Shown here: positions 1 through 7,375 of the stretch, piece by piece
Layout of the letters: every line of letters starts with the position of its first letter
Position numbering within the stretch: the first letter of the stretch is position 1
From: Megasphaera elsdenii DSM 20460
GTDB lineage: Bacteria; Bacillota; Negativicutes; Veillonellales; Megasphaeraceae
Reading direction: 5' to 3'
NCBI RefSeq assembly: GCF_003010495.1
Contig: NZ_CP027570.1
Coordinates: 2,370,001 to 2,402,000, forward strand
Length of the DNA: 32,000 nt
Made by a program: the position numbers and the translations under genes
Notes under the pieces: generated by a model
Database searches by the model: none
Seen by the model: only the letters and a program-made list of their open reading frames with translations
What the model was told of the DNA's origin: nothing

Positions 1-34
1 TCATGACATATAATGTATTCAATAGTTTTCTCAT
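1..34 (-). CDS. cas1: Cas1 (subtype I-C-like), first 11 codons only; the gene continues past the left edge
   Basis: The ATG at 34..32 overlaps the cas4 stop (ATGA, 34..31). The frame reads MRKLLNTLYVM, which I recognise as the conserved I-C Cas1 N-terminus (..LLNTLYV..). Only 34 nt are visible. Confidence 0.55.
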   Translation of the reverse strand, partial: MRKLLNTLYVM

Positions 35-696
35 ACGTCGTCGCTTCCTAACATAGCTTCATAATACGGTTGGGCAGACTTCTTTTTACAAATAACGGGT
101 AGGCAGATTTCTTTCAAAGAACAACTGGGGCAGCCCTTTTTAGGCCGTACTTTGGGAATATATCCGCGTTTAAAATAATCATGCATCATTTCCAGCATTT
201 TTCTAACTTCTTGGCGTAAAGGTTCTGTTAGCTCAACAGGTTCCCTTCTATGTGTTTCGTGATAATATAAAGCCCCTTGATATATAGAAACACCTAACAT
301 CTCTTCTAAACACATCGCTTGGCAACATAGTTGAAGACGATCTGCATTAATATCCTTTGTTTTCCCTCGTTTGTACTCAATAGGAAATGGAAGCCATAAG
401 CCATTATGTCCATATAAACGCCCTCCACCATCATCCCGGTGAAATTCCACCACATCACATTGTCCAGTTACACCTAAAGTCCTTGAAGCAATCCGAATCC
501 CGCGAGAAATAAGAATTTCACCACGCTTCTCTATAAAATCTGGATTATGGCAATTTTCATGGATAATATTGCCTTCCATCGTCTTCATGTTTTCATCCCA
601 AACCTGGTCGATGTGAATCAAGGCCCATTGTCGAGGACAAAATGAAAAATGTTGTATCCCTGAAATCATCAAAAAATCATCTTCATCGTATTCCAT
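31..696 (-). CDS. cas4: CRISPR-associated exonuclease Cas4 (RecB-like nuclease with a 4-Cys cluster)
   Basis: It has an N-terminal Cys (FSFCPRQW), RecB motifs (CDVVEF, IEYKRGK) and a C-terminal CPSCSLKEIC. Start chosen at MEYDEDDF (ATG 696..694), preceded by GAGGGGG. The ORF-track start at 750 has no RBS. Confidence 0.9.
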   Translation of the reverse strand: MEYDEDDFLMISGIQHFSFCPRQWALIHIDQVWDENMKTMEGNIIHENCHNPDFIEKRGEILISRGIRIASRTLGVTGQCDVVEFHRDDGGGRLYGHNGLWLPFPIEYKRGKTKDINADRLQLCCQAMCLEEMLGVSIYQGALYYHETHRREPVELTEPLRQEVRKMLEMMHDYFKRGYIPKVRPKKGCPSCSLKEICLPVICKKKSAQPYYEAMLGSDDV

Positions 697-826: not shown

Positions 827-3476
827 TTAACATTCTTTTTTCCCATGAAAGGTGAGACTTGTAAGTATCCGTACAAGGCGGAGCCTCCATGTGATTTCAA
901 TCCACGGACCCATGAAGGGTGCGACAGTAGCCGGATAAAAGCTTCGGCGACAACCAGCAAATTTCAATCCACGCACCCATGAAGGGTGCGACGTCAATGG
1001 TGCTGACTTATGGGAGATGGTAGACAGCATTTCAATCCACGCACCCATGAAGGGTGCGACGCCAATCCGGTCGAGGTACTTAGCCACGGCATCGGAATTT
1101 CAATCCACGCACCCATGAAGGGTGCGACCTGCTGTGTTAGTGGAACTAGCTTTTATCAGCAACATTTCAATCCACGCACCCATGAAGGGTGCGACATGTG
1201 ATTTGTCGCTTATTCAAAGTACGCCAGTAATTTCAATCCACGCACCCATGAAGGGTGCGACGCAGATGGCGTCGAGGGCATCTGCGGCCATGCCGACATT
1301 TCAATCCACGCACCCATGAAAGGTGCGACCTGTTCGGGTGTCCGACCGTCTAAATCCTCCAGCGTATTTCAATCCACGCACCCATGAAGGGTGCGACACC
1401 GCAAGTACTCATGATTGACTGTGACCCGCAAGATTTCAATCCACGCACCCATGAAGGGTGCGACTGCGGCCGATACCAGGACGCCAATCAGTACTGCCCA
1501 ATTTCAATCCACGCACCCATGAAGGGTGCGACCGGGACGATACCGGCGTCTTCCTGGATGAGTTCCATTTCAATCCACGCACCCATGAAGGGTGCGACGT
1601 AAAATGGCTGGAAACACAGATCTGCCCGGCTTGCATTTCAATCCACGCACCCATGAAGGGTGCGACATCGGATTTCGCGTGAAACGTCGTCCGCGGTCCT
1701 CATTTCAATCCACGCACCCATGAAGGGTGCGACGATGCTTACGGTCGTATGAAAAGGGTCTACCTCATATTTCAATCCACGCACCCATGAAGGGTGCGAC
1801 CAGTTTAAAAGACAGCTCTTCTTGCCCTGGCCCGATATTTCAATCCACGCACCCATGAAGGGTGCGACCTGCTGTGTTAGTGGAACTAGCTTTTATCAGC
1901 AACATTTCAATCCACGCACCCATGAAGGGTGCGACACGGCGCGGAAATCTCATCCGGCGGACGCACACGGATTTCAATCCACGCACCCATGAAGGGTGCG
2001 ACTTCATCAAGACTCGGATAAAGTCGTACTTCAACTATTTCAATCCACGCACCCATGAAGGGTGCGACGACGTGCCGCTTTCTTCAAGCATCACAGCCAA
2101 CCAATTTCAATCCACGCACCCATGAAGGGTGCGACGTATGCATCTGTGAGGAAATCCGTCATGGTTTCAATTTCAATCCACGCACCCATGAAGGGTGCGA
2201 CATACCCAGAAGCAGTGCCTTGTAGATGATAATTATATTTCAATCCACGCACCCATGAAGGGTGCGACTTCCAGCCAGGCCGCAGCCGTGTTCTGTTTGA
2301 TATTATTTCAATCCACGCACCCATGAAGGGTGCGACTCTAAGGCATGGCATGGCGTCACAGGCGCCGTGAAATTTCAATCCACGCACCCATGAAGGGTGC
2401 GACGTAAGCCAGTTTTTCCCTTTTACAGATGTCAATGCATTTCAATCCACGCACCCATGAAGGGTGCGACCCCGGCCACCGCAACCACTAAACAGCCCGA
2501 ACCGATTTCAATCCACGCACCCATGAAGGGTGCGACAAGATTCGTGTCTATGAGCAGTGGTTAGCAAAACTTATTTCAATCCACGCACCCATGAAGGGTG
2601 CGACAGCCCTTGATTACATCGTCGAAGCAGCAGAGAGCATATTTCAATCCACGCACCCATGAAGGGTGCGACGGGTCGCCAACTGCCGCGTACTCATATC
2701 CGCTGTAATTTCAATCCACGCACCCATGAAGGGTGCGACGGCGACGGCGGCCCCAGCCGGGCTGACGTGCTTATTTCAATCCACGCACCCATGAAGGGTG
2801 CGACCCTGCGGGCCGACGTCGATGCCCTGCCCATTGAGATTTCAATCCACGCACCCATGAAGGGTGCGACAAGACCGGCATGAACGTCGACCAGATGGAC
2901 CTCATCATTTCAATCCACGCACCCATGAAGGGTGCGACGCATATTCAACTCCTTGGCCCGCTTCACCATATCGGATTTCAATCCACGCACCCATGAAGGG
3001 TGCGACGCGGCAGGCCCGGAACAACCGCAGGGCATCTTCCTGATTTCAATCCACGCACCCATGAAGGGTGCGACCTTTTCCCGGCTCTCAGACAAGCCGC
3101 GGCTGACGAATTTCAATCCACGCACCCATGAAGGGTGCGACCCAGGACCAGCTGGCCTTTCAAGGATATATCCAGTATTTCAATCCACGCACCCATGAAG
3201 GGTGCGACATGGGCCTGGGCGCCATCAGCTACGGCATCAACTTTATTTCAATCCACGCACCCATGAAGGGTGCGACTGGCCGACGGGACGTCTTCAAAGA
3301 TATCGCTTTCCGATTTCAATCCACGCACCCATGAAGGGTGCGACGCGTTGATGTCCGCCAGGGGATACTGGGTATCTTTATTTCAATCCACGCACCCATG
3401 AAGGGTGCGACGTAGCAGAGGGCGGCATAGCCTGTAAGGAACGGATTTCAATCCACGCACCCATGAAGGGTGCGAC
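827..3476 (-). CRISPR. Subtype I-C CRISPR array: 39 well-conserved 32-nt repeats (894..3476) plus one decayed terminal repeat (827..858), with 39 spacers of 33-36 nt
   Basis: The plus-strand repeat is ATTTCAATCCACGCACCCATGAAGGGTGCGAC. Its reverse complement GTCGCACCCTTCATGGGTGCGTGGATTGAAAT is the canonical I-C repeat form (GTCGC..hairpin..GTGGATTGAAAT), so transcription is on the minus strand with the leader at the high-coordinate end. Variant repeats: 894..925 (C>G at 907), 1298..1329 (G>A at 1321) and 827..858 (21/32 identity, exactly 35 nt from the next repeat). Confidence 0.97.
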
Positions 3477-3750
3477 AGTCTTCAAATTAACTCAGTCATC
3501 GCCTGCTTTTCTATCATCTATATTGCGAACTGAGAGAAAGCCAATCTAATTTTTTGAGTTAATTATCTGGATATTGCTTAATTTTATAGAAAGTAAGGCC
3601 TGCGCGGAACCCCGATATATTTTATGTGTGATGCCGCTTCGCACCACTTTCTCTCTATAAATCAGTCTTGACAGAGTTCGGTATGACCTGGTTACATATA
3701 CGGATAGCCAAGATGCCCTGTCTTAATTCGGTAATCTATTTTATATGGTT
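3477..3750 (-). promoter_or_regulatory. CRISPR leader (AT-rich; upstream boundary uncertain)
   Basis: It directly abuts the newest-end repeat (3445..3476) on the transcription-upstream side and is much more AT-rich than the flanking genes. It contains weak promoter-like hexamers (e.g. TTGGCT 3544..3539 / TATAGA 3522..3517). Confidence 0.6.
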
Positions 3751-3779
3751 AGTATACCTCTTTCACCATAGAAAATCAA
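3751..3779 (-). promoter_or_regulatory. Sigma-70-like promoter reading toward the leader and array (TTGATT-17 nt-TATACT)
   Basis: -35 TTGATT at 3779..3774, exact 17-nt spacer, -10 TATACT at 3756..3751. This is the best hexamer pair in the gap. It lies 8 bp from the TTC PAM of the partial protospacer. Confidence 0.5.
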
Positions 3780-3786
3780 TATATAA

Positions 3787-3807
3787 TTCTGTAATGTTGA
3801 CTAGTAA
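3787..3807 (+). promoter_or_regulatory. TTC PAM plus an 18-nt partial protospacer matching the orphan crRNA-like RNA (candidate Cascade operator)
   Basis: TTC at 3787..3789 is followed by TGTAATGTTGACTAGTAA. This is identical to the spacer-like segment TGTAACGTTGAATAGTAA (3884..3867, minus) at 16/18 positions, with mismatches only at positions 6 and 12. It contains a plus-strand TTGACT (3797..3802). Confidence 0.6.
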
Positions 3808-3821
3808 TTTAATAGCTATAG

Positions 3822-3857
3822 AAAAAACCTGCCGCAGGGTTAGCATACGGCAGGTTT
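3822..3857 (-). terminator. Intrinsic terminator of the orphan crRNA-like transcript
   Basis: On the minus strand: AAACCTGCCG, a 13-nt loop, CGGCAGGTTT, then TTT. This is a perfect 10-bp stem with a six-T run overlapping and following the 3' arm. Confidence 0.75.
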
Positions 3858-3922
3858 CCACCTCACTTACTATTCAACGTTACAATTTCAATCCACGTCC
3901 CTGTGGAATCCACAAAAACGAC
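3822..3922 (-). ncRNA. Stand-alone crRNA-like small RNA: one diverged repeat with an intact 5' handle, a 27-nt spacer-like segment and a terminator hairpin (CreA/CreR-like candidate)
   Basis: The diverged repeat at 3916..3885 is 20/32 identical to the array repeat, but its last 13 nt (CGTGGATTGAAAT) are identical. The spacer-like segment is 3884..3858. It has its own extended -10 promoter upstream and terminator downstream, and has the same orientation as the array. Confidence 0.6.
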
Positions 3923-3928
3923 AATTAT

Positions 3929-3937
3929 ATTATACCA
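3929..3937 (-). promoter_or_regulatory. Extended -10 promoter (TGGTATAAT) of the crRNA-like RNA
   Basis: The minus strand reads TGgTATAAT (3937..3929), a consensus extended -10. There is no good -35, as is usual for this promoter class. Predicted start is near 3922. Confidence 0.6.
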
Positions 3938-4062: not shown

Positions 4063-4090
4063 AGCACCATCAACTGATAAACGTCACAAA

Positions 4091-4366
4091 CGCGATGACG
4101 CAAAATAGTACGTCTGAGTCTATCGTTTCCAGAGAGCTGCCGGCTGGTGTGAGGCAGTATCGATTCCGGACCGAACTCATTGCTGAGCGGAAAGGCTGAA
4201 TGAAGTAGGCCGATACGGGAACTCCCGTTACAGAGCGTGGATATCGCCATGGCCGTATCCGAGAGTGCATCCATAAAGGATGAAACAGAGTGGTACCGCG
4301 GAAGGATTACAACGCCTTTCGTCTCTCTTCAACGCTTCGTGCAGAGAGACGGAAGGCGTTTCGTTT
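4091..4366 (+). promoter_or_regulatory. T-box riboswitch leader with a probable Leu (CUC) specifier
   Basis: Stem I has a GA/K-turn (CGCGATGACGC 4091..4101 with GAGCG 4185..4189) and an AGTA box (4107..4110). It also has an AG bulge AGAGAG (4131..4136) and a distal loop GGCTGGTGTGA between CTGCC and GGCAG. The specifier loop reads GAA-CTC-A (4173..4179). The F-box CCGTTA is at 4225..4230 and the T-box AAACAGAGTGGTACCGCGG at 4283..4301. The terminator is CGCCTTTCGTCTCTCT ... AGAGAGACGGAAGGCG followed by TTTCGTTT (4313..4366). Confidence 0.85.
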
Positions 4367-7221: not shown

Positions 7222-7353
7222 AAAAAGCTCGCCCTACGGTCCTCCGCAGGTGAGCTTTATAATCCCGTAAAGCTTCCCTACGGCGGCATGATCCGCATCA
7301 GGTAAAGGGTCAAGTGTAATCCGTCACTTTTCTCAGCCCGAAGGCTCCCCTAG
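7222..7353 (-). promoter_or_regulatory. TPP (THI-box) riboswitch with a terminator expression platform
   Basis: The minus strand reads CTAGGGGAGCCTTCGGGCTGAGA ... ACCCTTTACCTGATGCGGATCATGCCGCCGTAGGGAAGC (7353..7272). This is followed by an imperfect hairpin and a T-run (7262..7222), directly upstream of thiC. Confidence 0.9.
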
Positions 7354-7375
7354 CTTTTTCTATGTATCTGTGGCT

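Follow-up and report, generated by a model that had tools for sequence, protein, structure and literature searches.

A 32,000-nucleotide (nt) stretch of Megasphaera elsdenii DSM 20460 (NZ_CP027570.1, positions 2,370,001 to 2,402,000 of the forward strand; hereafter the window) contains, beside the leader of a type I-C CRISPR array, a free-standing gene for an RNA resembling a CRISPR RNA (crRNA). Our analysis indicates, with a probability of about 0.85, that this element is a creR gene, which would encode the CRISPR-derived, Cas-regulating crRNA-like RNA of the M. elsdenii type I-C system. The assignment is built on sequence comparisons, which establish the anatomy of the gene, two targets for its guide, the homology of the targeted region to cas3 promoters, the co-variation of guide and target between lineages, and the existence of mimics of the gene in phages. 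The preliminary description of this locus had proposed a I-C member of the CreA/CreR class, acting through a partial match next to the protospacer-adjacent motif (PAM) at a promoter, and this proposal is strongly supported by homologues found upstream of cas3 as well as by the co-variation.

Anatomy of the crRNA-like gene and its adjacent target

All coordinates are window positions; pieces of the window of 11.6 kilobases (kb) and 6.7 kb are 100% identical to HE576794.1 (M. elsdenii DSM 20460). On the minus strand, the gene consists of an extended -10 promoter, a degenerate repeat with a hairpin ending at the 5' handle, a 27-nt guide and a terminator (Table 1). A promoter scan also returned an alternative -10, TATAAT at 3929..3924, which pairs with TCGATA at 18-nt spacing. 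The layout of the guide promoter, TGnTATAAT followed by 6 nt and GTC, is kept in a second Megasphaera lineage (TGCTATAAT). Outside the array, GGATTGAAAT occurs as a single copy in the 32-kb window, within the solitary repeat.

Folding with RNAfold adds to the preliminary description that the 5' portion of the degenerate repeat is not random, as it forms a hairpin of 11 base pairs (bp) that stops exactly at the handle. This hairpin is presumed to be the recognition and cleavage site of Cas5c. Equivalent hairpins precede the handle in the homologues from Mitsuokella and the second Megasphaera lineage, and the variants seen among M. elsdenii strains lie in the loop (3908), convert a G-U into an A-U pair (3901) or open the top pair (3906). 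The guide is predicted to be unpaired within the terminated transcript. A second repeat-like sequence is absent 3' of the guide, where an unrelated terminator hairpin is found instead; the terminator is also the replacement for the 3' repeat hairpin. An Rfam search of the window detected no family over the crRNA-like gene, its hits being a T-box and a thiamine pyrophosphate (TPP) riboswitch elsewhere.

The first 18 nt of the guide match a TTC-flanked site on the plus strand, 50 nt downstream of the guide, whose protospacer at 3790..3807 reads TGTAATGTTGACTAGTAA. Guide and target are identical at 16/18 positions, with mismatches solely at positions 6 and 12. Beyond position 18, identity drops to 3/9 of the next nucleotides (2/6 of the first six), and no meaningful pairing is left. 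By chance alone, one would expect 4e-7 to 4e-6 TTC sites per window, or about 1e-7 within 500 nt, that agree at all 15 non-flipped positions, and no other site in the 32 kb scanned reaches even 12/15 of these positions. An ordinary self-targeting spacer of the array is ruled out, as the element is situated some 400 nt beyond the array, carries a degenerate repeat and a 27-nt guide, and matches its target over only 18 nt.

The target adjoins a sigma-70-type promoter, TTGATT-17-TATACT, which reads toward the leader, the array and cas4-cas1-cas2, and which scored best among the promoter-like sites that precede the array on the minus strand. The sequence statements of the preliminary description concerning the solitary repeat, the identity of the handle, the extended -10, the guide, the terminator, the TTC site, the 16/18 match and the promoter downstream were all confirmed.

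Table 1. Features of the crRNA-like gene, its adjacent target and the neighbouring CRISPR locus, in window coordinates; haplotypes are those of the M. elsdenii population sample.
Feature	Position	Strand	Basis or remark
Extended -10 promoter of the crRNA-like gene, TGGTATAAT	3929..3937	-	Consensus match; start predicted near 3922
Degenerate-repeat hairpin, 11 bp and 3-nt loop, abutting the handle	3896..3920	-	RNAfold minimum free energy and centroid structures agree
Solitary degenerate repeat, TTTGTGGATTCCACAGGGACGTGGATTGAAAT	3916..3885	-	20/32 identity to the array repeat; final 13 nt identical
11-nt 5' handle, TGGATTGAAAT	3885..3895	-	Identical to the array repeat; invariant in 10 haplotypes
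27-nt guide, TGTAACGTTGAATAGTAAGTGAGGTGG	3858..3884	-	Positions 1-18 are the working part; invariant in 10 haplotypes
Intrinsic terminator	3822..3857	-	Perfect core of 10 bp, 14 pairs in the RNAfold structure, then U6
Adjacent target: PAM TTC (3787..3789) and 18-nt partial protospacer (3790..3807)	3787..3807	+	Guide match
Sigma-70-type promoter TTGATT-17-TATACT	3751..3779	-	Promoter scan; -35 lies 7 nt from the PAM; invariant in 10 haplotypes
Possible decayed second copy of target and promoter and of the 5' untranslated region of cas3, joined to the leader	3654..3746	-	Local alignment; weak, inferred
CRISPR leader	3477..3653	-	In Mitsuokella and at the M. elsdenii effector locus, its homologue lies directly behind the stop codon of cas7
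Type I-C array, 39 repeats and 38 spacers ('array 3' of DSM 20460)	894..3476	-	Repeat GTCGCACCCTTCATGGGTGCGTGGATTGAAAT
cas4	31..696	-	Pfam Cas_Cas4; followed outside the window by cas1, cas2 and an amino-acid permease gene

A split I-C system and the origin of the adjacent promoter

The window array maps to HE576794.1 1,758,457-1,761,039, compared with 1,758,457-1,760,973 for the published array 3 (PMC7708048), such that the leader-proximal ends coincide and the distal ends are 66 bp apart. The effector genes cas3, cas5, cas8c and cas7 are absent near this array, the upstream neighbour being a T-box-controlled membrane protein gene on the opposite strand. Between the array and cas4 we found neither a terminator-like nor a minus-strand promoter-like site, and array and cas4 probably share a transcript. 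The adjacent promoter could therefore plausibly drive pre-crRNA and adaptation genes alike.

The effector half of the system, reached through Cas7 and Cas5 homologues, lies about 442 kb away in DSM 20460 (L219, HE576794.1 2,193,241-2,200,894) and comprises clpB, a gene for a 267-residue protein, cas3-cas5-cas8c-cas7 and array 6. The preliminary description had suggested scanning the genome, and the promoter of the effector genes in particular, for TTC followed by the guide target. At the cas3 promoter, the identical 18-mer is present: TTC and TGTAATGTTGACTAGTAA are located between the 267-residue gene and cas3, 8 nt upstream of TTGACT-17-TATACT, and the target also overlaps a second promoter-like site, TTTACT-17-TATAAT. 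Homologous leaders, and copies of the target with its promoter, are found in both halves of the system, and the two target-plus-promoter units together head all I-C genes and both I-C arrays. No solitary handle or guide gene was detected at the effector locus, either in DSM 20460 or in 25 other M. elsdenii effector loci. With the target present at both halves and the handle absent from the effector loci, M. elsdenii has a single guide gene for two target-plus-promoter copies.

Related loci show how this arrangement may have arisen. In Mitsuokella (L100, reached via Cas4 relatives, and L157), the order is guide gene, target, promoter, cas3-cas5-cas8c-cas7, leader, array and cas4-cas1-cas2, with the array inside one operon. 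The guide of L100, TATAAGGTTAACTAGTAGAAG, faces TTC and TATAATGTTAATTAGTAAAG on the opposite strand just beyond the hairpin, and the PAM is placed 8 nt upstream of TTGCAT-17-TATAAT ahead of cas3. In the second Megasphaera lineage, found by a metagenome scan with Cas3 (about 92% identical), the module is present upstream of cas3 in roughly two dozen contigs, with the guide TGTAATATTGAGTAGTAAG and the target TGTAATATTGAATAGTAA. Alignments showed that the window target and the TTGATT-17-TATACT promoter are homologous to the cas3 promoters of the M. elsdenii effector locus and of Mitsuokella, and that the leader which, in the other loci, begins immediately behind the stop codon of cas7 has its homologue in the 177 nt ahead of the first repeat. 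What lies between guide gene and array is thus best described as a cas3-operon promoter joined to the leader through about 90 nt of apparently decayed sequence, and the window looks like a Mitsuokella-type operon from which cas3 to cas7 have been removed. The unusual placement beside the leader, pointed out in the preliminary description, is correct as a position; it is no new design but a remnant of the cas3-operon promoter in a split locus.

When this sequence (3654..3746) was aligned locally with upstream sequence from the second Megasphaera lineage, the score was 45, against 25.9 +/- 3.7 (maximum 37) for shuffles, which were run on a different, shorter target. On the minus strand it contains TTGGCTATCC..., which resembles TTGACTATCC of the effector locus. 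The idea that 3700..3660 preserves a trace of the cas3 start codon was considered and dropped, as alignments to L105 and L100 scored 31 and 39 against the shuffle maximum of 37 and a second promoter copy matched better. A partial duplication is also seen within the effector-locus promoter of one strain (L124).

The homologous loci bear directly on the possibility that the guide is an antitoxin of the CreTA type. CreTA modules are reportedly toxin-antitoxin pairs of RNAs, and they require a toxin gene under the repressed promoter. Here, the guide would repress a small toxic RNA or peptide encoded in 3750-3480, and loss of Cascade would kill the cell. The architecture is as in CreA, with a guide behind a degenerate repeat and a partial match through which Cascade would act as a repressor at a promoter, and the promoter lies about 270 nt ahead of the first repeat. 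However, at the M. elsdenii effector locus, as in Mitsuokella and the second Megasphaera lineage, what follows the homologous promoter is cas3 itself, behind an untranslated region of 70-90 nt that leaves no room for a toxin. In the window, 3477..3653 is the conserved CRISPR leader, which follows cas7 in those loci, 3654..3746 resembles decayed promoter sequence, and the GTG-initiated frame near 3650 lacks a convincing ribosome-binding site and straddles the leader junction. In contrast to CreTA, no toxin gene stands behind the guide-targeted promoter in the window, and we consider an antitoxin very unlikely. Of the two outputs offered in the preliminary description, expression of crRNA and adaptation genes accordingly fits the locus, while a hidden toxin in 3480..3750 does not, because the promoter leads straight into cas3 in relatives.

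Guide-target pairing across lineages and in phages

Guide and target change together between lineages, as the preliminary description had anticipated for a guide free to drift at positions 6 and 12. Paired changes are found at positions 2 and 10 between M. elsdenii and Mitsuokella, and at position 7 between M. elsdenii and the second Megasphaera lineage, while positions 6, 12 and 18 drift. In Mitsuokella, guide and target agree at 18/21 positions, with mismatches only at 6, 12 and 18. The sixth-position pattern extends to strains, since target position 12 varies within both other lineages as well as within M. elsdenii. Among 10 haplotypes of a 524-nt region from the M. elsdenii population, 16/524 sites vary, none of them in the handle, the guide or the terminator. 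The PAM and 16/18 protospacer positions are invariant; position 12 (3801) is C, T or A, and position 15 (3804) is changed in one haplotype. Two contigs (L130, L146) carry upstream of cas3 a guide gene whose seed is apparently deleted (GATTGAA|TAGAATACC...), with the terminator kept, the target absent and a different cas3 promoter; they may be natural loss-of-regulation alleles.

Scans of viral contigs (IMG/VR) revealed stand-alone copies of the guide gene in phages. A search for handle plus seed returned 14 contigs, and the looser pattern TGTAANRTTGANTAGTA, whose hits were mostly chance matches, added at least 3 after filtering for the handle. At least 17 phage contigs (L201-L210, L212-L215, L237, L256, L295) therefore carry a gene in which an extended -10 promoter of its own, a hairpin differing from that of the host, the handle, the guide and a terminator follow one another. 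The phage promoter, TGCTATACT, is similar to that of the host but differs in spacing. All 15 paired positions are kept in the phage guides, at least 11 of which fit the M. elsdenii target and at least 6 the second-lineage target (A at position 7). Two contigs examined for structural genes encode a portal, large terminase and major head protein (L214) and a major head protein (L206). M. elsdenii I-C spacers match at least 8 of the mimic contigs, and 11/13 of these matches lie beside TTC, which confirms TTC as the PAM of the M. elsdenii I-C system, as the preliminary description had stated for the subtype. One mimic contig (L295) derives from an isolate genome (IMG 2545824774). An exact search of the viral contigs for window spacer 12, aimed at a DSM 20460 prophage and a possible mimic in it, gave no match.

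Host lineages and phage mimics together amount to a natural mutagenesis experiment. Across 14 distinct host and phage guides, every sixth position (6, 12 and 18) takes all four bases, in the mimics as elsewhere, whereas the 15 paired positions are invariant or track the target lineage, the sole exception being position 15 in L147. The existence of the phage mimics is independent evidence that the target controls something important for immunity. Their genes also fit the description of viral Cracr RNAs, which are phage crRNA-like RNAs (crlRNAs) that hijack CreR/CreA circuits and for which I-C-directed candidates have been reported (10.1101/2024.10.29.618823). Like Cracr RNAs as described there, the Megasphaera phage guides mimic the host CreR and would make Cascade silence its own promoter, the window element being the host original; Megasphaera is not mentioned in the main text of that report. 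Since the mimic-carrying phages are themselves targeted by M. elsdenii spacers, transcriptional silencing of CRISPR looks like an active counter-defence.

Additionally, we surveyed 80 other, unrelated I-C loci in Bacillota for solitary TTGAAAY handles, requiring that the 17 nt behind the handle match a TTC-flanked site no more than 800 nt away. Such a handle with a matching guide was found in 15/80 loci (L008, L013, L016, L018, L019, L021, L034, L035, L042, L044, L046, L048, L067, L079, L085), compared with 0-1 for reversed or shuffled guides and 0-3 for other trinucleotides. Where checked (L008) or judged by coordinates, the guide gene is placed in the cas3-cas5 gap and is divergent from cas5, unlike the Megasphaera/Mitsuokella type. 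Combining these with L100, L123 and the window gave 18 independent pairs (L008-L085, L100, L123, window), selected on the paired positions without use of positions 6, 12 and 18 or anything beyond. Among them, guide and target agree at position 6 in 7 cases, at position 12 in 1 and at position 18 in 6, and pairing ends after position 17. The single match in 18 at position 12 compares with about 30% expected by chance (P ~0.014), and a mismatch at this position might be favoured rather than merely tolerated.

These comparisons can be set against the notion that the two arms form an ordinary inverted repeat around the terminator, for example as a read-through hairpin or processing site, with the likeness to a crRNA either coincidental or a dead relic of the array. 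Were the terminator read through, the guide could indeed pair with 3807..3790 in the RNA (minimum free energy -48.2 kcal/mol, z = -4.95). However, the target and its TTC PAM are kept at the effector locus, where no hairpin is possible because no guide arm lies nearby, and the phage copies show the converse, with the guide present and the second (target) arm absent. Every lineage is mismatched at positions 6, 12 and 18, which a hairpin would not tolerate selectively, and a processing hairpin and an exact 11-nt handle stand directly ahead of the guide arm. An inverted repeat of this kind is thus extremely improbable.

Proposed circuit and comparison with known crRNA-like regulators

For a creR gene, the features above suggest the following circuit. 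A transcript of about 100 nt would start near 3922 and stop at the terminator, and Cas5c would cleave it at the base of the degenerate-repeat hairpin, generating the 11-nt handle. Handle, 27-nt guide and terminator hairpin would be loaded into Cascade (Cas5c-Cas8c-Cas7), encoded about 442 kb away, which would then recognise TTC and pair over 15 nt (1-5, 7-11, 13-17) at a site that precedes the -35 by 7-8 nt. We propose that the resulting R-loop is too short to license Cas3, and that Cascade therefore stays in place as a repressor. With both promoters repressed, a single small RNA would place both halves of the split system under negative feedback, such that less free Cascade would lead to more cas, crRNA and adaptation-gene expression, and phage look-alike RNAs would push the same switch toward off. 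Repression is expected because there is a direct I-C precedent among crlRNAs (10.1101/2024.12.27.630466) and because CreR autorepresses cas genes in other subtypes (10.1101/2023.03.10.532045).

Several observations weigh against this reading. The promoters of the guide gene and of the target are consensus matches only. The target sits upstream of the -35 box and not over the core promoter, which makes the strength of repression uncertain, even though at the effector locus it overlaps the additional TTTACT-17-TATAAT site. The invariance of handle, guide and terminator is not significant alone, as about 2.3 variable sites would be expected in their 76 nt. At some effector loci, the seed is mismatched at position 10 (L114, L120, L125, L225) or position 2 (L124); with the cognate guides of these strains unseen, the mismatches reflect either co-variation in trans or decay. 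Finally, the adjacent promoter may contribute little to array transcription, because its -35 is weaker (TTGATT, compared with TTGACT at the effector locus) and an apparent decayed duplicate follows it.

The last point also favours a narrower alternative, in which creR is functional but has its sole meaningful target at the distant cas3-operon promoter, the adjacent copy being a leftover of the locus split without useful control over array 3 and cas4-cas1-cas2. In relatives, the leader comes immediately after cas7, and no separate promoter lies between the two. Furthermore, a guide gene can exist without an adjacent target, because in L092 the sequence diverges right after the terminator. Against a leftover stands the conservation of the adjacent copy, whose PAM, paired positions, -35 and -10 are unchanged in the 10 haplotypes (except for position 15 in one) while neighbouring sites vary; moreover, its promoter remains the best candidate upstream of the array on that strand, and the array-cas4 interval offers no substitute. 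We regard this alternative as unlikely, though considerably less so than an antitoxin or an inverted repeat. In L092 (1-70, corresponding to window 3822 onward), unrelated sequence takes the place of target, promoter and leader directly past the terminator, and the contig ends 65 nt later.

A creR gene in M. elsdenii would join a class that has already been described, including predicted I-C examples, and its mechanism is not novel. In types I-B, I-E and V-A, autorepression by CreR has been demonstrated, and creA-like elements in I-C loci, found by eye, appear in Figure S7 of the same work (10.1101/2023.03.10.532045). As in these cases, M. elsdenii has a degenerate guide RNA with a partial, PAM-flanked match at an effector cas promoter and no linked toxin. 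It differs in having one degenerate repeat and a terminator hairpin, whereas the described CreRs are mostly mini-arrays with two repeat-like sequences. The M. elsdenii system is also split, with two promoter copies per guide gene, one of them 442 kb off, and its adjacent copy heads the array and adaptation genes instead of effector genes.

In its build, the element resembles the I-C crlRNAs of Neisseria, which repress the defence genes Nezha, Gabija and 'CRISIS' about 20-fold in a Cascade-dependent manner, and which have one degenerate repeat, a 3' end in the loop of a 3' hairpin and a 16-bp match mismatched at position 6 (10.1101/2024.12.27.630466). Shared features are the I-C subtype, a solitary repeat hairpin cut to an 11-nt handle, a 3' hairpin that is not a repeat, the TTC PAM, pairing over about 16 bp with a mismatch at position 6, and a target adjoining the -35. 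The M. elsdenii element thus has the solitary-repeat-unit form of these I-C RNAs and is not a regulatory mini-array. Unlike the Neisseria crlRNAs, which act on cargo defence genes between cas3 and cas5c, it aims at a cas operon promoter and at the array and adaptation unit, and the guide gene of the M. elsdenii type is ancestrally located upstream of cas3, in the same orientation.

Standalone repeat-like sequences have been reported for 34% of I-C loci; their guides show partial complementarity to the promoters of cas genes and leave each sixth base unpaired (Shmakov et al., PMC10120712). As described there, the survey looked inside cas loci; a locus-based pipeline of this kind could miss the link between guide and effector genes in M. 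elsdenii, because the two are separated.

What is noteworthy in M. elsdenii is the combination of one guide gene with two targets, an array-plus-adaptation unit as a regulated output, and phage mimics linked to the host. With one guide and target copies both adjacent and 442 kb off, control in cis and in trans, and over effector genes as opposed to array and adaptation genes, becomes genetically separable. The locus also offers, in a bacterium common in gut and rumen, a clean case in which sequence supports autoregulation of CRISPR through a crRNA-like RNA.

DSM 20460 has I-C, I-F and III-A systems and, in two I-C arrays, 85 perfectly matching self-targeting spacers, which are carried without visible damage and without a known anti-CRISPR protein (PMC7708048). 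A single trans-acting CreR could tie crRNA supply and spacer acquisition (array 3, cas4-cas1-cas2) to free Cascade, and a switch held off by strong autorepression or by a prophage-borne mimic could explain this tolerance, an extension that we offer tentatively and judge to be rather improbable.

Further observations concern the I-C genes and the remainder of the window. A 35-nt spacer, GTTGCTGATAAAAGCTAGTTCCACTAACACAGCAG, is present twice in array 3, at 1129..1163 and 1869..1903 (spacers 24 and 35 from the leader). The cas2 gene is called as two open reading frames of 41 and 48 amino acids, instead of one of 96, in L195, L197, L198 and L200 and is probably disrupted; in L088, cas1 is shortened too. 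An IS605-family TnpB gene lies between cas7 and array 6 in CP009240.1 (L105:11040-12155) and CP027569.1 (L222:6997-7654), and Cas8c measures 604, 620 or 629 amino acids depending on the strain. Elsewhere in the window, the T-box leader (4086..4329, plus strand) precedes the gene for a 411-residue membrane protein without a Pfam match, and the TPP riboswitch (7258..7361, minus strand) precedes thiC.

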